IMG/VR virus record: IMGVR_UViG_3300017761_004426
Span: 1 to 33,377 of that record
Length of the DNA: 33,377 nucleotides
Reading direction: 5' to 3' (one strand)
From: a virus
Taxonomy: Duplodnaviria; Caudoviricetes
Shown here: piece after piece, positions 1-22,583 of the stretch
How positions within the stretch are numbered: the first letter of the stretch is position 1
Layout: each line of letters starts with the position of its first letter
The notes under the pieces: generated by a model
Database searches by the model: none
What the model saw: the letters and a program-made list of their open reading frames with translations, nothing else
Told to the model about the DNA's origin: nothing
Program-made: the position numbers and the translations under genes

Positions 1-84
1 AAAAAAGATCCACTTCTTTCCTAGCTATGAAAAACCATAAAAAACCCTCGTTTCCTTTCTAAAATAAATCCACAACCGAACCCA

Positions 85-918
85 ATGCCTAAACCCAAGC
101 CAAACACCGCTTCAACCATCCCAATCCATTGCAGTTACGCCCGCCTTGCGGACGTAACTTCGCTCGTCGCCAACCCCCGCAACCCAAATAAACACTCAGA
201 TAAACAGGTGGCGCTCCTCGCAAAAGTCATCCGCCATCAAGGGTGGCGCGCGCCGATCACGATCAGCAAGCGAAGCGGATTTATTGTCACCGGCCACGGG
301 CGACTAGCCGCCGCTCTCCTCCTCCAAGTTGAGCAGGTGCCAATTGATGAGCAGGATTTTGCCACGGAGGCCGACGAGTGGGCGCACCTCGTCGCAGACA
401 ACCGCATTGCCGAGCTGGCCGATGCTGACAGGGGGATGATTGCCGACCTGCTCGGCGAGCTTGACGCCGGGGGGCTTGATATGGATCTGACGGGGTTTGA
501 CATGGAGGCGTTAGAGGAGGCCCTGGCAGAGTCAGATGTGCCACAACAAGATGACATTTATACAAACAAGATTGTCGCTCCAATCTACGAGCCTAAAGGC
601 GAGCAACCTCCAATCTCAGATCTCATCGATAGGAGCAAGACAGAGGAACTGATGAAGGGGATCAAGGCGGCTGACCTCCCGAACGAGGTCGCTGAGTTTC
701 TTAGATTTGCCGCGGAGAGGCACACTACGTTTCACTTTCGCAACATCGCAGAGTTCTATTGTCACGCAGACAAGCCGACTCAGGATCTCATGGAAAAATC
801 TGCGCTCATTATCATCGACTTTGACAAGGCGATTGAGAATGGATTCGTGCATTTAACGGAAAAACTTGGGGCATTGGCAGACCAACAAAACGAGGAGGAC
901 GAAGACAATGGAGAATAA
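85..918 (+). CDS. ParB/Sulfiredoxin-like N-terminal domain fused to a C-terminal domain typical of phage glycosyltransferase-associated proteins
   Basis: ParB-N motifs NPRNPNKH, GWRAPITI, IVTGHGRL, ADNRIAE; C-terminal IYEPKGEQP...AAERH...IAEFY...SALIIIDFDKAIENG; stop overlaps the next GT gene. Confidence 0.85.
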   Translation: MPKPKPNTASTIPIHCSYARLADVTSLVANPRNPNKHSDKQVALLAKVIRHQGWRAPITISKRSGFIVTGHGRLAAALLLQVEQVPIDEQDFATEADEWAHLVADNRIAELADADRGMIADLLGELDAGGLDMDLTGFDMEALEEALAESDVPQQDDIYTNKIVAPIYEPKGEQPPISDLIDRSKTEELMKGIKAADLPNEVAEFLRFAAERHTTFHFRNIAEFYCHADKPTQDLMEKSALIIIDFDKAIENGFVHLTEKLGALADQQNEEDEDNGE

Positions 919-1789
919 TTTTTGCGTCTTCATCCTAACGCATGGCAGACCTGAACGCGTACACACTTACGACAGCTTAATGAAGGCTGGCTATACCGGG
1001 AAGGTGTTTATCGTCATCGATGACGAGGATAAGACTGAAGAGGAATATCGAAAGCGATTTGGCGAAAAAGTTCTGCAATTCTGCAAGAAGGAATGGGCAG
1101 AGAAGACAGACGAGGGCGACAACTTTAACCACCGCAAGGCGATTGTCTACGCTCGGAATGCTTGCTGGGAATTAGCGAAGCAAGTTAAGTGTGATTACTT
1201 TGTGCAGTTCGACGACGACTACACAAATTTCATGATTCGATTTGATTCAAAACTAAAGTTCCAAAATGGAAGAATAACACAAAACATTGATGCCGCATTA
1301 ACTGCGCTTTTGGATTTTTACAAATCCATCCCTGCAACAGCAATTGCGTTTTGCCAAGGGGGAGATCACATAGGAGGAAGGTACAAAGGACTTGGAAGCC
1401 TTGAAATAAAAGATGTAAGATTGCGAAGGAAGTGCATGAATAGTTGGTTCTGTGACGTTAACAAACCCTTTAAATTTGTGGGACACATGAACGAAGACGT
1501 GAGTGCTTACGTTCTAAATGGGTTGCAGGGACATCTGTTTTTCACAGTCATGCAAATGATGTTAGTGCAGAAACCAACCCAAACAACCGCAGGGGGGATG
1601 AGCGACCTTTATTTGTCATCCGGCACTTACGTAAAATCATTTTACTCGGTCATGCAATCCCCTTCATGCGTAAAAATCGGGCAACTTAAAGATCCTCGGA
1701 ATCCAAGCGGATGCCGTATCCATCACAAAATCAACTGGCACAATGCTTGTTCAAAAATTCTTAGAAACAAATGGAGGAAGGCACGATGA
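908..1789 (+). CDS. GT-A fold glycosyltransferase resembling TET-associated (TAGT)/phage DNA base glycosyltransferases
   Basis: FCVFILTHGRP first strand, YARN, YFVQFDDDY (DxD), CMNSWFC, MNEDV, TAGGMSDLY, YVKSFY; ATG at 908; AT-richer than structural genes. Confidence 0.75.
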   Translation: MENNFCVFILTHGRPERVHTYDSLMKAGYTGKVFIVIDDEDKTEEEYRKRFGEKVLQFCKKEWAEKTDEGDNFNHRKAIVYARNACWELAKQVKCDYFVQFDDDYTNFMIRFDSKLKFQNGRITQNIDAALTALLDFYKSIPATAIAFCQGGDHIGGRYKGLGSLEIKDVRLRRKCMNSWFCDVNKPFKFVGHMNEDVSAYVLNGLQGHLFFTVMQMMLVQKPTQTTAGGMSDLYLSSGTYVKSFYSVMQSPSCVKIGQLKDPRNPSGCRIHHKINWHNACSKILRNKWRKAR

Positions 1790-2553
1790 AAACTAAAGTC
1801 GTAATCCCGTGGCACAACGCCGATCAACTAGACATCTTCCTTCATGCATGGAGCATCGACCAAGACGATGACAGGGCAATTTTTCAACAAGATAAGACGA
1901 AGGAAGGATGTGCGAGAACGAAGAACCGAGGAATCACTGCCGCGATAGAATCAGGAGCCGACATTGTGATCATCCTCGACGATGACTGCTTTCCTGAGCA
2001 GGGGCAGACCTTTGGCGAGTTTATCGCGGCGCATGAAATCGCGCTCGAGCCTCAGTCGGTAGAGATGTTCGAAGTGGTGACAGATCCGCCAAGCCGGGGA
2101 ACGCCGTACTTCAATCGAACGATCGAAATGCCAGTCGCGGCTTCAATGGGGTTCTGGACGCACGTCGGCGATTACGATGCGCCGGGTCAGCTTGTCCATG
2201 GCGCAACCAAGCTGATGAAGTTTAGTCGAAAGGCAATTCATGGGCGATACTTTCCGCTGTGCGGAATGAACCTTGCTTTTCGTGTTGCCGAGTGGCCGTG
2301 GTGCCAGTTTATCGACGTGCCGAGGTTCGATGACATCTGGCAGGGATTCATTTGGCAAAGACAGGCATTTTTTGAGGGCAAATGCTTTAATCTTGCGGGC
2401 CCACTCGTTCGACATTCAAGGCAAAGTAACGTTTGGCAAAACCTCCAAGACGAGTCAAAAAATCTAGAGAGGAACGAAACTATCTGGCAAGACATCTACC
2501 GCTTACCGATAGGTGATTACGATCAGATCAAAACTGCTCTTGGTCTTCAATGA
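1786..2553 (+). CDS. GT75/RGP family protein (UDP-arabinopyranose mutase-like)
   Basis: LDDDC, RGTPYFNR, GFWTHVGDYDAPGQL, FPLCGMNLAF, RFDDIWQG, HSRQSNVWQNL are colinear with plant RGP/UAM motifs; ATGA overlaps at both ends. Confidence 0.85.
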   Translation: MKTKVVIPWHNADQLDIFLHAWSIDQDDDRAIFQQDKTKEGCARTKNRGITAAIESGADIVIILDDDCFPEQGQTFGEFIAAHEIALEPQSVEMFEVVTDPPSRGTPYFNRTIEMPVAASMGFWTHVGDYDAPGQLVHGATKLMKFSRKAIHGRYFPLCGMNLAFRVAEWPWCQFIDVPRFDDIWQGFIWQRQAFFEGKCFNLAGPLVRHSRQSNVWQNLQDESKNLERNETIWQDIYRLPIGDYDQIKTALGLQ

Positions 2554-3098
2554 GCGCCGCCACCCCAACCCCCGACCCGCTAACGTGGCCGAGCGACCGC
2601 ATGGCGCGTCTGCTCGACATGACCACGCGCCGCATGAACCAGCTCGTGAGCGAAGGCGTGCTTTTCCGCGAAGAGCGCGGGCGTTACTCGCCCCTAAAAA
2701 ACGCGGTTGCATACATCCGCTATCTGCGTGACAGGCGTGACCAAGCTGGCACCGCGTCAAATGAAGATGACGACAAAGCGACGAGACGCGCGCTCAACGT
2801 GGCACGCCACGACGAGATCCGCCTAAACATGGAAGTCACCGCGCGCACCCGCATCCCGCTCGACCTAATCGAAGAGATTGACGAGCGCCTGCACTCTAAC
2901 ATTGCGGGCATCCTCAAGAGCAGGCGAAACAAGACGCTCGACGAGGAAGCTTTGTCTGACATCTTCGGCGAGCTTCGGCAAGTCGGGCCAACCCTCCGCG
3001 CGTGGCATCAGCAAGTGACCGCCGCCGAAGTGCCCGTTGTCGCTACGCCTGTCAACCCGCCCGCCGAAGCAGACGATGACGAAGACGACGACGAATGA
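2550..3098 (+). CDS. terS: Terminase small subunit (Nu1-like winged HTH)
   Basis: ARLLDMTTRRMNQLVSEGVL...GRY...AVAYIRYLR; ATGA-coupled to the large terminase. Confidence 0.85.
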   Translation: MSAATPTPDPLTWPSDRMARLLDMTTRRMNQLVSEGVLFREERGRYSPLKNAVAYIRYLRDRRDQAGTASNEDDDKATRRALNVARHDEIRLNMEVTARTRIPLDLIEEIDERLHSNIAGILKSRRNKTLDEEALSDIFGELRQVGPTLRAWHQQVTAAEVPVVATPVNPPAEADDDEDDDE

Positions 3099-5020
3099 GC
3101 AACGCCACCACCATCCGCCCCCACGAGATCCGCGCAATCTCTCGCTCCTCAGCGGTGGAGCTTCGCGCCCGCATCGCGGCGCGTTGCTACGCGTTCTCTT
3201 CGCTCGTCCCGCCGGAGGAGTGGGCGCAGGACATTTACCGCCTCCCCACCGGCGGACGGTTTCGCTGGGAGTTTGCGCCGTATACTCGCGCGATGTTCAA
3301 GAGCATCTTCGACCCCAACTCCATCGAAACTTCGATGCAACTTTTTAGCCGTGGGCTCAAGTCAACGGTCATTCTTCTTGCCATCGGTTACGTGATCGAC
3401 CAAGCACCGCGGCGCATCCTCAGCTTGTGGCCAACCAATGGACAAGGGGAGAAGTGGAGCAAGGACAACTTGTGCGGGGAGTTGCTGAACTGCACTCCCG
3501 CCCTTAGCTACCTCGGCAACGCCACGGGCAAACGCATCACAAGCAACACCCTCCTCCACAAAGAATTCCCCGGCGGGCTCATCGACATCTTCGGTGCCAA
3601 CTCCCCAGGCGATATGCGACGCGCGAAAGGATCGTTCCTCTACGCTGACGAAATCGACGCAATCGGCACCGAGCAAACCGACGAAGGCGACCAGCTCGCG
3701 ATCTTCAATAAACGCGGCGACGAATATCCCGACACCATCCGCGTATTCTCCTCCTACCCTTCGGTGCAGGGGCTCAGCAGAATCAACGCGAGGCTGAAAG
3801 ACTCAGACCACAACGAATGGCATTCGACGTGCGTGGAGTGTGGGGGCGAACCGTTCGTCATGCATCGGAATCAACTCCGCTATGACATCGCATCCCCAGA
3901 AGGTGCCCGCCTTGAATGCCCGCGGTGCTCCGCTTTGCTTACCGACCGCCAACGCTATGACATGGCACACCGCCAAGGCTACGACAACTGGCGACCGCGC
4001 AACGCCTTCCGTGGGAAGCGTGGATATCAGGCGAACGCGCTCCTCTGGCCTCACCCAGTAGACGAGAAAAAATACGCGGGGGGCTGGCTGCAGTGCATCG
4101 CCCAACAAGAGATTGACGCGAAGCAAAGCGACAACCCAAGGCGATCGATGCGCGTGCTTGTCAACACCGTGGACGCGGAACCTTGGGATCCTACCGAAGA
4201 CAGCGAAAAGCCGCCAGAGTGGCGGGAGATCTACGAAGCCCGCGAACACTACACCGACGCGCCGCGTGATGCGCTCTTTCTCACCGCGTTCGTTGACGTC
4301 CAGCTCAATCGCCTCGAATGCGGATGGCGGGCGTGGGGAAGGAACGAGGAAAGCTGGGGGCTCGACCACGTGGTTTTAGATGGACACGTTCGGATGGCAG
4401 ACGTTTGGAAATCTTTACGCAAGCAACTCGCCCGCAAATTCCCGCGCGAAGGTGGCGGGTATCTGACCCTTGGCATGGCGCTCGTTGACGGCGGCCACTT
4501 CGCCGAGGACGTTTACCGTTTCATGCAAGAACTTTCGACGAATCCGATGCCGGGGGTGAGCGGGAAATGTCGGGCGAGCAAGGGCGTCGGGCAAGCCAAC
4601 CACCCGATTATTGACCGCAAATGGAAGACGGTGGCGCGCAACCTTAAAGGGTATCACATCGGCACGTGGGAGGCGAAAGATCGCATCTATGAGCGGCTCA
4701 AGGTGAAGGCGAAAGACGGCGAGACGCCCGAAGGCATCATGCACTTCAACCAGCGATTCGGCGAAGAATATTGCCAGCAGTTGACCGTTGAGACGGTGGC
4801 GATTAGCTACGAGCGAGGGGAGGAGGTGCGGAAATATTTAAACGCGAAGCAGGCGCGAAACGAAGCGATAGACATTGAAGTTGGCAACCTCGCCGCCTTC
4901 CGCCTGCACCCGCGCAACATGGACGCGCTTGAGGATGAGCTTGAGAATCAGCAACCCATCAACGCGCCTGCGCCTCCTCAGGCGGCGAGCGTTATGCGGG
5001 GTGGCGGGTGGGGGCTTTAA
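3095..5020 (+). CDS. terL: Terminase large subunit, lambda gpA family
   Basis: 641 aa; APY motif, Walker B LYADEID, CVEC/CPRC zinc pair, nuclease motifs FVDVQ..RLE, VDGG, SKG, RNEAID. Confidence 0.95.
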   Translation: MSNATTIRPHEIRAISRSSAVELRARIAARCYAFSSLVPPEEWAQDIYRLPTGGRFRWEFAPYTRAMFKSIFDPNSIETSMQLFSRGLKSTVILLAIGYVIDQAPRRILSLWPTNGQGEKWSKDNLCGELLNCTPALSYLGNATGKRITSNTLLHKEFPGGLIDIFGANSPGDMRRAKGSFLYADEIDAIGTEQTDEGDQLAIFNKRGDEYPDTIRVFSSYPSVQGLSRINARLKDSDHNEWHSTCVECGGEPFVMHRNQLRYDIASPEGARLECPRCSALLTDRQRYDMAHRQGYDNWRPRNAFRGKRGYQANALLWPHPVDEKKYAGGWLQCIAQQEIDAKQSDNPRRSMRVLVNTVDAEPWDPTEDSEKPPEWREIYEAREHYTDAPRDALFLTAFVDVQLNRLECGWRAWGRNEESWGLDHVVLDGHVRMADVWKSLRKQLARKFPREGGGYLTLGMALVDGGHFAEDVYRFMQELSTNPMPGVSGKCRASKGVGQANHPIIDRKWKTVARNLKGYHIGTWEAKDRIYERLKVKAKDGETPEGIMHFNQRFGEEYCQQLTVETVAISYERGEEVRKYLNAKQARNEAIDIEVGNLAAFRLHPRNMDALEDELENQQPINAPAPPQAASVMRGGGWGL

Positions 5021-5030
5021 AATTAATTCA

Positions 5031-5059
5031 TTGCAAAGAGGGGAGAGAATCGGCAAGGT
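5031..5059 (+). promoter_or_regulatory. Putative promoter TTGCAA-N17-CAAGGT for the helicase cassette
   Basis: Same spacing and consensus as motifs at 6695, 10028, 15653 and 22572; ATG at 5070. Confidence 0.45.
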
Positions 5060-5069
5060 TCTATCGCTT

Positions 5070-6179
5070 ATGACAAAGCCTATTGAACTGCGTGACTATC
5101 AAAAAACCATAGTCGCCTCCACCTTAATCGCCTTACAAACTCACTCGCGGGTGGTTGTGGCTTGCCCGACAGGATCAGGGAAAACCGTCATTGCCATCCA
5201 CGGAATCCTTCCCAACCTGCAAGGGAAAACGGCTTGGGTGACGCACCGAAAAGAGCTTGAAAAGCAGGTGCATGAATACGGGGCAAACCTCAGAGTGTCC
5301 CTAGTGCAACGGAAAATCTTTGGCGATTACCAGAATATCATTATCGACGAGGGGCACCACGTTTGCGCGGATCAGTATCGGCAAATCCTAGAAGACCACC
5401 CTTCGGCAAAGATTATTGCTCTCACCGCAACCCCTTATCGGCTTGATGGCGTCGGGCTTGGATCATGCGGATTCACCAAGATCATCCACGGGCCAGACAC
5501 CTACGACCTCACCGAAGACGGCACGCTTTGTCGGGCCCGCGTCTACATTCCAAAATCAGAACACACGGCGGCGTGGTCGCCTGATGCCGCGGCAAGCCGA
5601 ATTGCCAAAACCGAATTCACTAAGGGGATTGTCTTTTGCCGATCAGTGGATGAGGCAAAGGAACTCGCGCAACTCCTCACCGCCGCAGGAATAAAATCTG
5701 CCAGCATTGACGGGATGACAGACCCAGAAAAACGGGGGCAACTCTTCAAGGGATTTGCGAAAGGAAAGCTAAAGATCATCTGCAACCACACTATCTTCAC
5801 CGAAGGCGTCGACGTTCCCGACGTGGATTTGATTGTTCTGAACCGCCACACTTTGAGCCGGTGCCTATGGAAGCAGATGATCGGGAGAGGAACTCGAAAC
5901 GCCCCCGGCAAGCAGGAATGCACGGTGCTAGACCTCGCGGGCAACGGCGTCTTCCACGGATCAATTTACGACCGAGAAATCTACGACCTCAATGGCAAGG
6001 TCGAATCTACCGAATCGCGAACACTCACCGAGACAGGGGGCGAGGACGAAACAACTTATGACCACAACCAAGGAGAAGAACTAAAGGAATGGAAACCACA
6101 ACCGAAACCAATCAGGCTAATCGCGAGCTTACAAAGACTGAAATTCAAATCGTTGTTGCACAGATTCAGGATCGCCTGA
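5070..6179 (+). CDS. Superfamily II (DEAD/DEAH-like) helicase
   Basis: Q motif LRDYQ, Walker A PTGSGKT, DEGH, TATP, TEGVDVP, QMIGRGTR; ATG at 5070 preferred over the ORF-track start inside terL. Confidence 0.92.
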   Translation: MTKPIELRDYQKTIVASTLIALQTHSRVVVACPTGSGKTVIAIHGILPNLQGKTAWVTHRKELEKQVHEYGANLRVSLVQRKIFGDYQNIIIDEGHHVCADQYRQILEDHPSAKIIALTATPYRLDGVGLGSCGFTKIIHGPDTYDLTEDGTLCRARVYIPKSEHTAAWSPDAAASRIAKTEFTKGIVFCRSVDEAKELAQLLTAAGIKSASIDGMTDPEKRGQLFKGFAKGKLKIICNHTIFTEGVDVPDVDLIVLNRHTLSRCLWKQMIGRGTRNAPGKQECTVLDLAGNGVFHGSIYDREIYDLNGKVESTESRTLTETGGEDETTYDHNQGEELKEWKPQPKPIRLIASLQRLKFKSLLHRFRIA

Positions 6180-11392: not shown

Positions 11393-11782
11393 ATGCCACA
11401 ATCACCCGACATCAACGGAGAGAATACGGTCATCGCCTTCCTCCCTCCCACCGCAATCACCGCCGCGACAACCACTTACGCAGGCGTTGACCTGCAAGCG
11501 TTCGTGGGCAATGTGCTCGTTACCCTTAATTGGGTGCGACCAAACGCCGCGGCTGGCACGCTCGCCTTGGCGATCCTCGACAGCGCGGACAACACAACCT
11601 TCACCGCCAACGCGTTGACGGGCATCATCTCTGACGTCACGACCGCGACAAGCGGGTGCGTCAAATGCGCGATCGACACCAAAGCCGTCAACCGCTACGT
11701 CCAGCCAAAGCTGACCTGCACCGGCACCACGGCAACGTGGACGGCATCTTTAGTGATTGCCGGATTGAAATCGATCGTCTAA
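11393..11782 (+). CDS. Putative head decoration (auxiliary capsid) protein
   Basis: 129 aa, Thr/Ala-rich, directly after the capsid gene; GVDL, DSADNTTF and RYV motifs typical of this position. Confidence 0.65.
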   Translation: MPQSPDINGENTVIAFLPPTAITAATTTYAGVDLQAFVGNVLVTLNWVRPNAAAGTLALAILDSADNTTFTANALTGIISDVTTATSGCVKCAIDTKAVNRYVQPKLTCTGTTATWTASLVIAGLKSIV

Positions 11783-11809
11783 ACCTCGGTTTGGTTATTT
11801 GTCATAACT

Positions 11810-11839
11810 GGCGCAGTGCCGAAAGGCACTGCGCCTTTT
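11810..11839 (+). terminator. Rho-independent terminator after the capsid and decoration genes
   Basis: Perfect 11-bp stem GGCGCAGTGCC-GAAA-GGCACTGCGCC followed by TTTT. Confidence 0.9.
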
Positions 11840-11883
11840 GCTTGCCATCATGCTTCCCTTGTGCGAGTAAATCGCTCCTCCCA

Positions 11884-13260
11884 ATGACCACCACCGAAGC
11901 GCGAAAAAAGAACCGAAAGAAGCTTGGCGAAGCTGAAAAATTCTCACGAGCTGACGACCGAAGCGGAGCGGAAAAGATCTGGCGAGCGCACCTAAAAGAC
12001 GCCCCCGAAGATGCCGACGTGCTTTTCAACGTTGGCGTGTGCATCCAACGCCGAGCGCAGGAATCCGCAGAACGCCATGAAGCCGCCACCTTTTTTGATC
12101 GCGTCGTTTCTTCGCCCGAAGCGACGATGGAGCGCAAAGCCGACGCGCTCAACAACCTCGGGTTGCTCATGGAATCCATTGGTGAAAGCGAAAAGGCAAT
12201 GGTGGCTTATGGCTTCGCGCTCAAGATGTGGCCCACCCACAAAACCGCGCGCGTCAACCTCGGCGATTCGCACCGGCACTTCGGCAATTTTCACCAAGCG
12301 GACGAGGAATTTAGGGTCGTGCTCAGCCAAGACGAAGCTTCACCCGACGCTCACTTTTGCGCTGGGATGATCGCGCTTTTATTGGGTGACTACAAACGCG
12401 GGTGGGAGGAATACCGATGGCGGGTGAAGGTGCCAAACTACCAGACAAAACCTTTCATCACCGACAAGCCGAAGTGGCAAGGCGAACCGCTTGACGCCAA
12501 GACAATCATCCTCACCGAAGAGCAGGGGTTCGGGGACTCGTTTCAATTTTTGCGATACGCCCGATGGTTTAAGGCGCAGGGGGCGCGCGTGGTTTTTCGC
12601 GCTCAGCCTGCACTCCACCGCATCGCCGAAGGCTTCGACGGCATCGACGAGATTTGTCACCTCGGCCACGAACCCACCTTCGACTTCCACCTTCCGCTAA
12701 TGGACGCCCCCCACTTCGCCGAGACGACATTAGCAACCATCCCCACAGCCCATTGTTTGCGCATAATGCCACGCTGGGAGCGTTATTCGTTGCAGACGAG
12801 TAATCTACTTAGGCGGCGCATCGGCATCGTGTGGGCGGGCTCACCCGCTCACGGCAAAGATAATGCGCGATCGATCCCCGCCGAAGCCTTCCAGGCGATG
12901 ATCGACGCCAACCCGCTTCACGATTTTTACTCTCTTCAAGCAGGCCCGAAGCAACCCGAGATTCAGAACCTCCGCGGCATCACGAAAGATCTTTCGCTCG
13001 GCATCAAAGACTGGACGACGACCGCGCAAATTCTCTCGTGCCTTGACCTCCTCATAAGCGTCGACACCGCGTGCGTTCACCTCGCCGGGGCACTCGGTCG
13101 CCCCGTGTGGATGCTCACCCCTTACTCCCCCGATTGGCGGTGGCTACTCGCCCGCACAGATTCGCCGTGGTATCCACGCCTTCGCCTCTTTCGACAACCC
13201 GCCGCAGACGACTGGCAAACCCCGATCAAACAAATCTCCGATGCACTACAGGCTTTATAA
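11884..13260 (+). CDS. TPR-repeat protein fused to a GT9-like glycosyltransferase
   Basis: TPR helices (VLFNVG, ALNNLG, ARVNLG); EQGFGDSFQFLRY, IGIVWAGSP, FYSLQ, LDLLISVDTACVHLAGALG, DWRW, SPWYP..RLFRQ. Confidence 0.92.
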   Translation: MTTTEARKKNRKKLGEAEKFSRADDRSGAEKIWRAHLKDAPEDADVLFNVGVCIQRRAQESAERHEAATFFDRVVSSPEATMERKADALNNLGLLMESIGESEKAMVAYGFALKMWPTHKTARVNLGDSHRHFGNFHQADEEFRVVLSQDEASPDAHFCAGMIALLLGDYKRGWEEYRWRVKVPNYQTKPFITDKPKWQGEPLDAKTIILTEEQGFGDSFQFLRYARWFKAQGARVVFRAQPALHRIAEGFDGIDEICHLGHEPTFDFHLPLMDAPHFAETTLATIPTAHCLRIMPRWERYSLQTSNLLRRRIGIVWAGSPAHGKDNARSIPAEAFQAMIDANPLHDFYSLQAGPKQPEIQNLRGITKDLSLGIKDWTTTAQILSCLDLLISVDTACVHLAGALGRPVWMLTPYSPDWRWLLARTDSPWYPRLRLFRQPAADDWQTPIKQISDALQAL

Positions 13261-13840
13261 CTTCCTCCTCCAACGCGCCGCGGCTGACATCTACCCTGAA
13301 CCACCTTCGTCCATCCATTCGCAAATCACCGGGCAGATGGCCCCGCTTTTCGTCGCTACCCTACCCAAAAACGCGCAGATTCTCGACATAGGGTGTGGGC
13401 AAGGGGGAGCGTTGCAACTCTTCGCTGTGCTACGTTGTGACGCCGTTGGAATTGGCATCGGCGACGAAGACTTAGAAGCGTGCCGAGCGAAGAATCTCAA
13501 CGTTTTCAAGATGGATCAGAACGAAATGAGTTTCCCCGAAAACTACTTCGATGGCGTTTGGGCGCGGCACGTTCTCGAGCACTCGCTCGCCCCGCTCTTT
13601 ACGCTCACCGAAATCGCTCGCGTGCTCAGGCCAAAGGGCAGGCTCTACGCTGAGATGCCCGCCCCAAACACATCATGCCGCCACGAATCCAACCCCAACC
13701 ACTACTCAGTCTTCGGGAGTGAAGCGTGGGCGGAGTTGCTTTTCAAGGCAGGGTTCGACGATGTGCAGATGGTCAGCATCCCGCTCGAAACTGGCGCAGG
13801 AGCAGACGAGTATTACGCGTTCACCGCTACCAAATTATGA
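13241..13840 (+). CDS. Class I SAM-dependent methyltransferase (small-molecule or sugar type)
   Basis: ILDIGCGQG, FDGVWARHVLEH, RVLRPKG. Confidence 0.9.
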   Translation: MHYRLYNFLLQRAAADIYPEPPSSIHSQITGQMAPLFVATLPKNAQILDIGCGQGGALQLFAVLRCDAVGIGIGDEDLEACRAKNLNVFKMDQNEMSFPENYFDGVWARHVLEHSLAPLFTLTEIARVLRPKGRLYAEMPAPNTSCRHESNPNHYSVFGSEAWAELLFKAGFDDVQMVSIPLETGAGADEYYAFTATKL

Positions 13841-14856
13841 TCAAGATTTTCTACGCGGGCCAACCGGGACAAGGCTTCGGATGGGGGGTGGCAAATCATT
13901 ATTTGCGCACCGAGATTGCTCGCCTCACTCCCCTTGTCGATATCCCAGAGAAAGCCGACGTGGTTGTAATGCCACTCGCAAACCACGACCTCGACCCAGC
14001 AACCCGAGAGCGCGCGCGAATCAACCTCGCCATCACGTTTTTTGAGTCGCAACTAGGGGAGCGAGCAAGGGAAAACGCCCACCGATACAACGCTGTTTTT
14101 GCGGGCTCTTCGTGGTGCGTTGCTCGCCTTGCCGAGCGTGATATTCACAACACCTCTCCGCTCATTCAAGGGGTTGATCGGCGAGTTTTCAAATGGGCAC
14201 TTCCTCGCCCACGTGACGGGCACTTCCGCATCTTCAGCGGCGGGAAATTTGAGTGGCGGAAAGGGCACGACCTCGTGATCGCCGCCTTCCGTCGCCTCAT
14301 CGAAACTCACCCCACCGCGCACCTTGTTTGCGCATGGCACAACCCGTGGCCCGGCTTATTCGCGACCATGGCAAACTCTCCGCATATCGACACCGCCGCG
14401 AACGGCGGGACGCAAGAGCAATTCTTCGCAAACCTCCTCCTCATCAACGGCATCCCGCTCCACCGCTTCACCATCCTTCCGCAACTCACCCACGGGCAAC
14501 TCGCCGCCGAAATGAGCGCAACCGACTGCGGGCTTTTCCCCAACCGATGCGAAGGCGGGACGAATTTGGTGGCGATGGAATACGCATCAATCGGCAGGCC
14601 GATCGTCGCCAATGTGCTCACAGGGCACGCCGATATCCGCGACGCGATCACTCACAAAATCTTCGCCACCGAGGATTCGATGGGGTGGGCGGTGCAGACC
14701 ATCGAAGAAATCCACGCGAAGCTCGTCACCGCCGCGTCGGTGGAGCCAACGCCGATCCTCACCGCCCCCGTCTGGGAGTGGTCAACTGCCGCGCGCAAGA
14801 TCGTTGAAACCGCGCAGGCAATTGACCTTCAAACGTGGCGCTGGCACAATCTCTAA
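13837..14856 (+). CDS. GT-B (GT4-like) glycosyltransferase
   Basis: GFGWGV, QGVD, GKFEWRKGHD, FPNRCEGGTNLVAME (EX7-8E-type motif); ATGA overlap with the methyltransferase. Confidence 0.9.
   Translation: MIKIFYAGQPGQGFGWGVANHYLRTEIARLTPLVDIPEKADVVVMPLANHDLDPATRERARINLAITFFESQLGERARENAHRYNAVFAGSSWCVARLAERDIHNTSPLIQGVDRRVFKWALPRPRDGHFRIFSGGKFEWRKGHDLVIAAFRRLIETHPTAHLVCAWHNPWPGLFATMANSPHIDTAANGGTQEQFFANLLLINGIPLHRFTILPQLTHGQLAAEMSATDCGLFPNRCEGGTNLVAMEYASIGRPIVANVLTGHADIRDAITHKIFATEDSMGWAVQTIEEIHAKLVTAASVEPTPILTAPVWEWSTAARKIVETAQAIDLQTWRWHNL
14822..14850 (+). promoter_or_regulatory. Putative promoter TTGACC-N17-CACAAT
   Basis: Sigma70-like elements with 17-nt spacing; ATG 14859 shortly downstream. 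Confidence 0.5.
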
Positions 14857-21025: not shown

Positions 21026-21807
21026 TGCCAAACCTCATCCCCATTCTACCGCGGGCGGATTCTTACCTTGAAATCAAGGCACTTGTGAACCAGCTCGCCG
21101 ACGAATTCGAGCGCGCTTATTTGGTTGATGGGCGCGGAACCACGGTGGCTAATTCGGTGACGGGCAGGGGGAGAAGTATCGACCTTGACCCCTCGGCAAC
21201 CGCCGCAGGATCCACGACAGGCGAGCCCGAGGGAGCAGACCCTTACGTGATGCGGTCGAAAAAATACGGCTCGACTGCACCGAGCGACGACACCGCCCCG
21301 CTTGCGCTCGACCAAGCCAACCCCGACGAATGGATGAGGAGCGACCCGCCGCGGAAAACTGCGGTGGCGATTGACGAGATCGGCGATGGGGGGCAACCCG
21401 CGCAACCATTCCCAACAACGATAGAAGTAAGCGCAGGCCACGGAATCCCCGCAACAGGTGGCCCGTTTTTTGTCTTTATTGACGGGAGCGGAACCACCCC
21501 CGACATGGACGGGCTTTATAACGCGACCTACGTAAGCTCAACCGTTTTTACCGTGCCATTTCAGCTCGCGGATTCAGGCAATTCGGTTGGCCAAGGCACA
21601 ATGGCCATCTCCACCGCAGGCGTGACCGTCAACGAGGAGGCGCGAATCTATATCAGCGGGAGTGGCTCGGGGACATTCTCGCAGAAGATTTTCACTCGGC
21701 AGAAAAAGTGGGACATCCGCGGCGGGCTTTACTATGTGAGCGGGGAAACGCTGGCGGAGTTTGACACCGAGTCTGGGAGCGGATCCGCGGGCGGGGGGCT
21801 TCCTTGA
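21025..21807 (+). CDS. Tail tip protein with an FCCH-like beta-barrel segment
   Basis: AGHGIP...VFIDG...DGLYNATYVSSTVFTV; synteny. Confidence 0.5.
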   Translation: MPNLIPILPRADSYLEIKALVNQLADEFERAYLVDGRGTTVANSVTGRGRSIDLDPSATAAGSTTGEPEGADPYVMRSKKYGSTAPSDDTAPLALDQANPDEWMRSDPPRKTAVAIDEIGDGGQPAQPFPTTIEVSAGHGIPATGGPFFVFIDGSGTTPDMDGLYNATYVSSTVFTVPFQLADSGNSVGQGTMAISTAGVTVNEEARIYISGSGSGTFSQKIFTRQKKWDIRGGLYYVSGETLAEFDTESGSGSAGGGLP

Positions 21808-22583
21808 CCGCCGTCTTTTCGTGGCGTCGCCCGGCTTCGATCCCTTTCACCCTTCACGACGCTTGGTTGTGGACTGGCGCGCTGGCTTACGCTCGGCGCG
21901 CTGGGATGGCGACTCTGCTCGTTGCCGACGCCGCAGGTCTATCCACCTTGATTGATCGCCTAAAGCTCAGCGTTGACCGCGTGGAGCAATTGCCACCCAT
22001 CCCCGCCGAGCTTGACCACGTGCGCGACATTGCGAAGCTCCAGGCGCTCAAGGTTGCAGGGGCAAACGCGATCCACATCGACTTCGATGTGTTCCTTCGC
22101 AAGCCACTTCCGCCCCAGATTCTCAACGCCGACTTTGCCGGTGAATTTTTTTACCCTACGCGTCCATTTTTGCACCGCGTCAACGACTCGCTCAAGGTCG
22201 CACGCCACCAACCGCCTCCGGTGCAATGTCTGGCTGGTGGCATCATGGGCGGGCAGGCCACCGAGCGCATCCACGCGGTGGTCGACCGAAGTTTAGCGGT
22301 GGCTTTGAATCCGCTAAACCGCTCGGCGTTGGTTGTGGCAAATGGTTACCAAGCTTCGGTGCTTATCGGCGAAGCCGCCTTCGCCGCCGAGTTTCCAGAC
22401 GCTCAAATTCTCCTCCCTCACGCCAACCAAAATCGTCAAGACTACATCGACCGCGGCTATGTGCATCTAGCGGGCAACAAGGACAACCCAACGAAGCTCC
22501 ACCACGCGAGCGAGATGGTTCGCCAAGACTTCCCAAGCGAATACGCGTCAACCTTCGCGGGCTTCGCGGGGTTGCGAAACTAG
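21804..22583 (+). CDS. Putative GT-A fold nucleotide-sugar transferase (DUF6734-like)
   Basis: KL.AL...IHIDFDVFLRKPLP (DxD), AGGIMGG, GYVHLAG..K; TTG start overlapping the upstream TGA. Confidence 0.6.
   Translation: MTAVFSWRRPASIPFTLHDAWLWTGALAYARRAGMATLLVADAAGLSTLIDRLKLSVDRVEQLPPIPAELDHVRDIAKLQALKVAGANAIHIDFDVFLRKPLPPQILNADFAGEFFYPTRPFLHRVNDSLKVARHQPPPVQCLAGGIMGGQATERIHAVVDRSLAVALNPLNRSALVVANGYQASVLIGEAAFAAEFPDAQILLPHANQNRQDYIDRGYVHLAGNKDNPTKLHHASEMVRQDFPSEYASTFAGFAGLRN

Follow-up and report, generated by a model that had tools for sequence, protein, structure and literature searches.

The known routes of DNA glycosylation in phages, as far as the available texts of the literature cited here go, begin with a hydroxylated base. 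The question of what a glycosyltransferase might act on where no gene for such a base is present is raised by positions 85-3098 of IMG/VR record IMGVR_UViG_3300017761_004426, a tailed phage (Duplodnaviria; Caudoviricetes) whose whole 33,377 nt record is the window analysed here. An earlier note had described four open reading frames (ORFs) at this locus as a ParB, TAGT-type glycosyltransferase (GT) and GT75 module, coupled to the terminase, lacking a base-hydroxylating enzyme and possibly carrying out a new arabino-glycosylation of DNA. The layout is as it described, with four plus-strand ORFs chained by overlaps (85-918, 908-1789, 1786-2553 and 2550-3098) and leading into the terminase large subunit gene terL (3095-5020); the sequence shows both the overlap at 908/918 and, at 1786, 2550 and 3095, the ATGA motifs in which stop and start codons overlap. 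ORF1 to ORF3 belong to the module as proposed, ORF4 does not, being the small terminase gene terS (PHROG 57, E 1e-6). As set out below, the three genes form an exchangeable cassette built around a conserved pair, a C-terminal domain of ORF1 (domain X) and the transferase ORF2, which may glycosylate DNA directly.

A swappable slot with alternative alleles

Twelve loci were found by searching with terL; two of them are copies of this phage, and seven have a terL 98-99% identical to that of the window and DNA that is 90-93% identical over the packaging genes. The slot is visible in four of these seven siblings, the other three being cut short. DNA similarity to the siblings is lost at about 525-535, just before domain X, and regained at about 2560, which delimits a swappable cassette of X, TAGT and GT75 (530-2553, plus strand) with its left border just past the ParB domain and its right border at the start of terS. 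In two siblings (L272 and L273, terL 99%) the slot holds a C5 methylase (PF00145, E 1.7e-58 and 3.4e-56) and a CmoA-like gene, which in L272 matches TIGR00740 with E 7.6e-15, below the cut-off. In L276 (terL 98%), a contig that begins inside the gene, the slot holds Mom (PF25680, E 8e-44), an enzyme that modifies adenine N6, and in L275 (terL 98%) it is empty. The N-terminal part of ORF1 is 96% identical in L273 despite the different cargo of that sibling, and a further locus (L279; terS 97%, ParB 90%, terL 73%) has its ParB fused to an N6/N4 methylase.

Cargo was scanned in 35 loci akin in ParB or terminase, some of them near-copies; kin loci outside the scan were near-copies, cut before the slot or of the X type. 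A DNA base-modifying family was found in 24 of the 35 (seven C5 methylases, ten N6/N4 methylases, one Dam-like methylase, three Mom and three TGT-like genes, the last below the cut-off) and a TAGT in five (one with Tet_JBP, one with radical SAM and one below the cut-off), with another family in three and nothing recognised in the remaining three. Judged by these alignments the cassette is one allele of a swappable slot, which can also be empty. The DNA-modifying genes of the siblings in the same slot indicate DNA as the acceptor and are the strongest evidence for it; furthermore, as the cassette swaps as a unit, any gene making a handle for the sugar would have to travel within the cassette, and none is there.

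Whilst the position of the cassette before the terminase is conserved, the coupling to the terminase that had been claimed is not borne out, given the empty slot of L275, the several terminase families that follow the pair, and stand-alone copies of X and TAGT amid replication genes. A 261-aa gene is inserted between terS and terL in three siblings (L273 3016-3801, L275 685-1470 and L276 1210-1995); it has Cys-rich motifs and is PP-loop-like by eye, and the L273 copy has no Pfam or NCBIfam match.

Domain X and its predicted partner

ORF1 (85-918, plus strand) encodes 277 aa, with an N-terminal ParB/Srx-like domain (about aa 1-150, GHGR motif at aa 70) followed by domain X. Its identification as a ParB-like protein stands: the match to PHROG 620 'ParB-like' has E 4.5e-40, the Pfam ParB_N match (aa 23-90) is weak at 17.3 bits against a cut-off of 26.3, and a TIGR00180 match is confined to aa 24-103, the ParB nucleotide-binding domain being present. 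What had gone unmentioned is the second, C-terminal domain X (550-885, plus strand), an acidic, mostly helical domain of about 110 aa that is the predicted binding partner of the transferase and has no Pfam match, nor was any Pfam family matched by the last ~125 residues of ORF1. Canonical ParB partitioning was rejected, ORF1 having no helix-turn-helix (HTH) match and no ParA being present among the scanned ORFs.

Domain X belongs to a family of 1364 clusters at 50% identity. In total 191 X loci were collected, from which 18 duplicates were removed to leave 173; most came from X queries (the best 80 of 589 viral matches and the best 80 of 87 genome matches) and the remainder from TAGT or GT75 queries, which are biased toward linkage. 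Under a strict distance rule, a TAGT gene comes immediately after X in 164 of the 173 non-redundant loci, and the conserved linkage that had been anticipated for these genes is therefore not due to chance. The other nine comprise one pair that is adjacent but outside the rule (L003), four with intervening genes, two at a contig edge, one doubtful match and one (L176) with no TAGT in 3.8 kb. ParB is fused to X in 144 of the 173, and four proteins join ParB, X and TAGT in a single chain. Stand-alone X is often found amid replication genes, namely polymerase, primase, helicase and sliding clamp. Loci with other cargo beside ParB or X (L312, L318, L319, L109 and L124) have radical SAM with TAGT, or RadC/JAB-domain genes.

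The pair lies ahead of several unrelated terminase families and is present in both bacterial and haloarchaeal viruses. In Lactobacillus phage c5, a complete 31.8-kb genome, it stands alone between cos and the terminase, and other carriers include halovirus HHTV-2, Nocardia phage NTR1, Vibrio phages and Escherichia coli prophages; of 5426 complete E. coli genomes, 889 have an intact pair, ORF1 being annotated there as ynaK.

The predicted complex of X and TAGT scored 0.83 and the best of three controls 0.00, and 116 of 157 solved complexes attain the mark that it reached, as do 2 of 215 mismatched pairs; the runs showed at least 93% contact agreement and a partner pLDDT of at least 83. X is thus predicted to bind the transferase through its C-terminal strand and helix. 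When X is folded alone its C-terminal third has a pLDDT of about 60-70, and it is this third that contributes the larger part of the interface residues listed. Of the five invariant X positions, three (A70, Y73 and D93) belong to that interface, as does the invariant Y16; the invariant polar residues of X are Y, R, Y and D. From these models X may be read as an adaptor subunit of the transferase. Structure searches gave no PDB match for X at E <= 0.001 and a best Z of 3.5 in a wide search, a result that shows neither novelty nor its absence, and elsewhere returned two unnamed viral homologues only, with no usable Atlas match. The X model had no clear PDB match that would make it a C-terminal ParB dimerisation domain, and no catalytic fold was found for it in these searches.

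The transferase

ORF2 (908-1789, plus strand) encodes 293 aa and is, as had been proposed, a TAGT-type glycosyltransferase, matching Pfam TAGT (PF20691) with E 3.5e-33 and 115.7 bits against a cut-off of 27.5. It falls in an X-linked clade of the family. Residues R14, D102-D104 and D197 are invariant in 79 aligned sequences, and the model has a GT-A fold (Foldseek E 5.9e-5 to TarS; Z 13.5 and a root-mean-square deviation of 3.8 over 204 aligned residues to GnT-I), its structural neighbours including protein and glycan GTs. When the TAGT profile was run against the sequences of solved structures, the one match was spurious. ORF2 is basic (isoelectric point, pI, 9.2) where its partner is acidic, and its GC content, 0.43 against 0.56 for the genome, is what acquired cargo would be expected to show.

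In a quick tree of 48 sequences, 26 X-linked enzymes and four same-locus paralogues are split off by a branch with an SH-aLRT of 99; the T6 enzyme and one TET-linked enzyme lie on the opposite side, both on long branches, and the exact place of T6 is unsure owing to the length of its branch. The PHROG label 'beta-glucosyl-HMC-alpha-glucosyltransferase' was rejected as a functional assignment for ORF2, which is separated in the tree from the T6 enzyme, finds it by BLASTP only at E 7.4 and on this evidence is not its orthologue.

A second partner type is found in L049, L050, L052, L054-L057, L221 and L223-L225, where a ParB with a different C-terminal domain accompanies the same GT75 and a TAGT from a separate clade, and where additional TAGTs or a sulfotransferase-like gene are sometimes present; Tet_JBP was found in none of the eight such records searched. 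A series of proteins (P0417-P0428), several named as E. coli proteins, consists of a truncated TAGT fused to tail-fibre or terminase pieces, and these are probably deletion products of decaying prophages.

The GT75 protein and the donor sugar

ORF3 (1786-2553, plus strand; 255 aa) was correctly recognised as a GT75/RGP protein (PF03214, E 8.4e-9, 35.5 bits against a cut-off of 23.8) and is likely to be an accessory nucleoside diphosphate (NDP)-pyranose mutase. In the PDB a profile of 28 phage GT75 homologues had no matches other than rice UAM and MtdL (5 sequences, E 1.7e-18 to 3.6e-16), the best being rice UAM 8cid (E 1.7e-18) and MtdL 7yua (E 4.8e-17). MtdL D109-D111, R159, D195, R257, D260 and H287 align with ORF3 D65-D67, R104, D129, R180, D183 and H210, of which all are kept in 28 of 28 rows except D66, which is kept in 22. 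Published work on MtdL names the residues needed for activity, among them Asp87, the mutation of which abolishes activity; it also reports that GT75 mutases act on different NDP-sugars and that GT75 proteins autoglycosylate an arginine (PMC9937993). The arabinose of the earlier note is, given this range of NDP-sugars, not supported as stated and may be one donor option only.

The three genes do not form a constant unit as had been supposed, since GT75 is present in just 11 of the 173 X loci, and the core is therefore X and TAGT; the close relative L019 retains only a short remnant of GT75. A TAGT lies within 3.5 kb of 22 of 31 close GT75 homologues (22 of the 27 with upstream room) as against none of 37 distant ones; close homologues with no TAGT nearby are those of L045-L048 and L218-L220. 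In L179 the position of GT75 is occupied by an unrelated mutase, UDP-galactopyranose mutase (PF03275, E 1.7e-36), L165 clustering with L179, and the occurrence of two unrelated pyranose-furanose mutase families in one position favours a role in donor supply. Other likely tailoring genes near X loci are an NDP-sugar epimerase (four loci), methyltransferases and radical SAM (within three genes in nine loci). From this gene content GT75 is an accessory that probably supplies a furanose donor.

The search for a handle-making enzyme

Six-frame searches, a Pfam scan of 30 ORFs and a PHROG scan of 51 ORFs agree with the earlier note that the window has no TET/JBP dioxygenase, thymidylate synthase or C5 methylase. 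PF00303, the thymidylate synthase family, to which 5-hydroxy-dCMP synthase presumably belongs, is absent from this record, and its control was matched in 10 of 14 genomes. The search was also made in 50 longer records, namely this record, five named phages and 44 longer viral contigs, of which eight carry the second ParB-TAGT type; 12 viral contigs are at least 90% complete. Tet_JBP was found in none of the 50, thymidylate synthase in one (a 195-kb Vibrio phage) and C5 methylase in four, and none of the three was found in the 12 near-complete contigs. The complete genomes of phage c5 and HHTV-2 likewise have the pair but no handle-maker that these searches detected. The Tet_JBP positive control was found in both genomes where it was expected, mycobacteriophages Cooper and Nigel, at 28 bits and under the cut-off.

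Comparison with known systems

The closest parallel in layout is the ParB-dependent thymine dioxygenases of phages (5mYOX clade C1), whose action on double-stranded DNA is reported to require an orphan ParB (O'Toole et al. 2026, PMC13229309). In both cases a ParB-fold protein with no obvious DNA-binding domain is encoded directly 5' of a DNA-modifying enzyme and near the terminase, as in Cooper and Nigel, where the order is ParB, Tet_JBP, terS and terL. Here, however, the partner is a glycosyltransferase, there is no dioxygenase, and the C-terminal part of the ParB protein is X, which is also found without ParB. The gp2 genes of Cooper and Nigel (L270 785-1753 and L271) are annotated as queuine tRNA-ribosyltransferase yet match Tet_JBP (E 4e-8). 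It has been suggested that ParB directs modification enzymes during packaging, an idea cited in PMC8256090.

The known DNA-acting members of the TAGT family are, in the texts available, the T2/T6 beta-glucosyl-HMC-alpha-glucosyltransferase (PMC13216743) and the 5mYOX-linked GT-As, the latter with the catalytic pattern R...DDD...EDY/F (10.1101/2023.12.21.572611). ORF2 shares with them membership of PF20691, the GT-A fold and the R...DDD...ED pattern, but it belongs to a separate clade with no pairwise similarity to T6 and a dedicated partner domain, its ED is followed by V and not Y/F, no gene for an alpha-GT or for making 5-hydroxymethylcytosine (5hmC) or 5-hydroxymethyluracil (5hmU) accompanies it, and the record has no dCMP hydroxymethylase of the thymidylate synthase family as the T2/T6 pathway has. 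Solitary TAGTs, described as possibly novel transferases, are reported from 288 of 753 phage genomes (PMC13216743). In RB69 and Mosigvirus a pentose is likewise placed on phage DNA, and a furanose donor is plausible here as well, but their arabinosyl-hydroxycytosine is reported to need a pre-replicative 5-hydroxy-dCMP synthase (PMC13390438), and no thymidylate-synthase-family gene was found in this record. ORF3 shares with MtdL and plant UAM/RGP the DDD motif, the metal-binding His, the nucleophile Arg and the sugar-site Asp and Arg (PMC9937993), and differs in being shorter (255 against about 350-375 aa), phage-encoded and Ala at the Asp87 position.

The CmoA-CmoX carboxymethylcytosine system consists of a C5-methylase homologue and CmoA, and CmoX is reported to act post-replication on unmodified cytosine, contigs with CmoX often having a ParB domain (PMC12783734). 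The C5 methylase and CmoA of L272 and L273 are laid out like this system, a likeness in gene layout only. Look-alikes of CmoA-CmoX, Mom and the ParB-N6/N4 methylase fusions (PMC12704722) occur as alternative alleles of the slot in siblings, but those enzymes transfer a carboxymethyl, methyl or adenine N6 group, where the predicted group here is a sugar. The available text of that survey of ParB fusions names no X or TAGT partner, and no characterised TET-less ParB-TAGT pair or phage GT75 was found in a literature search that was chiefly of open-access papers.

Proposed mechanism and alternatives

Of the earlier proposal, a glycosylation module with no base-hydroxylating enzyme stands, and DNA is the most likely acceptor. 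We propose that the locus encodes a post-replicative DNA glycosyltransferase that is tethered by ParB and X, takes its furanose donor from GT75 and adds the sugar to an unmodified base, a reading to which we would give slightly under an even chance. The three overlapping genes occupy a slot where siblings have other DNA-modifying genes or nothing. X would hold the transferase by its C-terminal strand and helix and so tether it to the ParB-fold domain, and ParB might, by analogy with the ParB-dependent thymine dioxygenases, help the transferase to act on double-stranded DNA. GT75 would turn an NDP-pyranose into an NDP-furanose donor, and carriers without GT75 would use an NDP-sugar of the host. 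The weakest step is the acceptor: as there is no phage-made hydroxymethyl handle, the sugar would go to a nucleophilic group on a canonical base, for instance an exocyclic amine. The purpose may be to shield new genomes from host nucleases. That DNA is the acceptor we consider quite probable, and given DNA, an unmodified base is somewhat favoured as its site. The broader claim, that X and TAGT form a two-component enzyme of wide occurrence which glycosylates unmodified bases in DNA directly, installs a furanose in this phage and represents a new class of natural base modification, is put forward more tentatively, as possible and rather short of even.

Several observations weigh against this proposal. 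The activity proposed for ORF1 to ORF3 is a prediction from sequence and models, and the literature search found no published example of a GT-A that glycosylates an unmodified base. The shared slot is a matter of shared position and recombination borders, not of shared substrate. No DNA-binding domain or HTH was matched in ORF1, and the protein is strongly acidic (pI 4.65). The X-linked clade is distant from the characterised DNA-acting TAGTs, with a long stem (ORF2 against the T6 enzyme, BLASTP E 7.4; X-clade profile on the T6 enzyme, 1.0 bit), and function need not transfer. As the Tet_JBP control itself fell under the cut-off, the search could overlook a dioxygenase that is only distantly related. 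In the alignment Ala43 of ORF3 stands opposite MtdL Asp87, among the first columns that the HMM match aligns, where the 28 rows have A, G, S or D, and five of the 27 close GT75 homologues with upstream room have no TAGT within 3.5 kb.

The acceptor could instead be a protein, whether a virion protein, the terminase, ParB-X itself or a host defence protein, in which case GT75 would be either a donor mutase or an arginine glycosyltransferase. GREB1, a relative, is reported to O-GlcNAcylate a protein (PMC7968844), which also counts against DNA, and arginine autoglycosylation by GT75 proteins (PMC9937993), the protein and glycan GTs among the structural neighbours of the ORF2 model and the second GT cluster after the capsid gene in the window point the same way, as does L048, where GT75 lies 3' of a capsid gene together with a GT2-like gene, a further point against our proposal. 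It would seem rather unlikely, nevertheless, that a protein is the target, as siblings have DNA base-modifying enzymes in the slot, no common protein target is evident across unrelated terminase types and bacterial and haloarchaeal viruses, and stand-alone X and TAGT adjoin polymerase, primase, helicase and clamp genes. A sugar added to a handle made elsewhere, by host modification of a base, by an unrecognised phage enzyme, by X itself or by a co-infecting phage, would accord with the hydroxyl acceptor that the characterised DNA-acting TAGTs need in the available accounts (PMC13216743; 10.1101/2023.12.21.572611), a need that again tells against an unmodified base. The radical SAM genes near nine X loci and the invariant Y, R, Y and D of X could be taken to favour such a handle. 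Carriers are found, however, in E. coli, Lactobacillus, Nocardia, Vibrio and Haloarcula, and we know of no handle common to these hosts; the invariant residues A70, Y73, D93 and Y16 sit in the predicted interface, and with no catalytic fold found for X this explanation appears improbable.

If DNA is the acceptor, the site of attachment could also lie outside the bases, in the backbone or at the termini (phosphate, 3'-OH, cos ends or nicks). Any host offers nucleophiles of this kind with no need of a handle enzyme, and the module usually lies beside the genome end and the terminase. Against this, the recognised sibling alleles modify bases, the allele of L275 is empty and replication-linked copies lie apart from the terminase, and we regard it as likewise improbable. 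Lastly, a standard TET or hydroxymethylase pathway might have its first enzyme beyond an incomplete contig, a hydroxylase outside the window being what the earlier note had named as fatal to its idea, and the record is indeed linear with a CheckV estimate of 49%. This is very hard to credit: none of the 12 near-complete carriers, nor the complete ones, has such a gene, the cassette swaps as a unit among siblings, the window itself holds packaging, tail, lysis and replication genes, and its end motifs suggest a near-complete genome.

The genome record and its other features

The record is that of a lambda-like tailed phage by the Pfam and PHROG scans, with a gpA-type terminase, portal, protease-capsid, tape measure, tail spike, endolysin, HTH regulator, DnaC-like loader, Sak4, SSB and RusA. 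Flanking the cassette, terS (2550-3098, plus strand) is 95-97% identical in siblings that lack it, and the lambda gpA-type terL (3095-5020, plus strand) matches PF05876 and PF20454. The left end is shared, five relatives starting at about the same position, and the right end lies 32 nt past a motif that stands 31 nt ahead of the start motif in L287 and L292, and 52 and 23 nt in L298. The spacing in L287 and L292 suggests a near-complete genome, and on these two features of its ends the genome is probably near complete. No contig spanning the genome junction was found in the search, contigs from five public runs covering both ends without a join, and the right end did not match DNA upstream of the ParB kin. 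All 14 runs containing at least half of the first 6 kb of the record are freshwater metagenomes, and no RNA dataset with phage sequence was among the runs listed. A promoter and terminator scan of 1-5200 gave matches at chance level.

A helicase gene after terL (5070-6179) is variable too, siblings L272 and L276 having other genes there. A second glycosylation cluster (11731-14856), directly 3' of the capsid genes, encodes a TPR protein with a weak GT9 domain, a class I methyltransferase and a GT4; relatives L333 and L334 retain the cluster at 46-54% identity, and judged by its position it may decorate the virion. The contigs examined for pairing of GT75 with this cluster end before the slot. 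Amid the tail genes is a DUF6734 protein (21804-22583), over the Pfam cut-off and GT-like by eye.

Implications

By its gene content the locus appears to be a real, conserved variant of ParB-guided phage DNA modification, which resembles the TAGT and 5mYOX systems and falls outside them for want of a handle-making gene. The pair is common, as is seen from the 1364 clusters of X and from the intact copy in about one in six complete E. coli genomes. The swap among siblings, the predicted requirement for a partner and the likely donor enzyme indicate which genes to co-express. If the proposal is true, a handle-free transferase would be a new DNA chemistry, with a possible use as a DNA-labelling tool, and would give small and temperate phages a new means of evading restriction.

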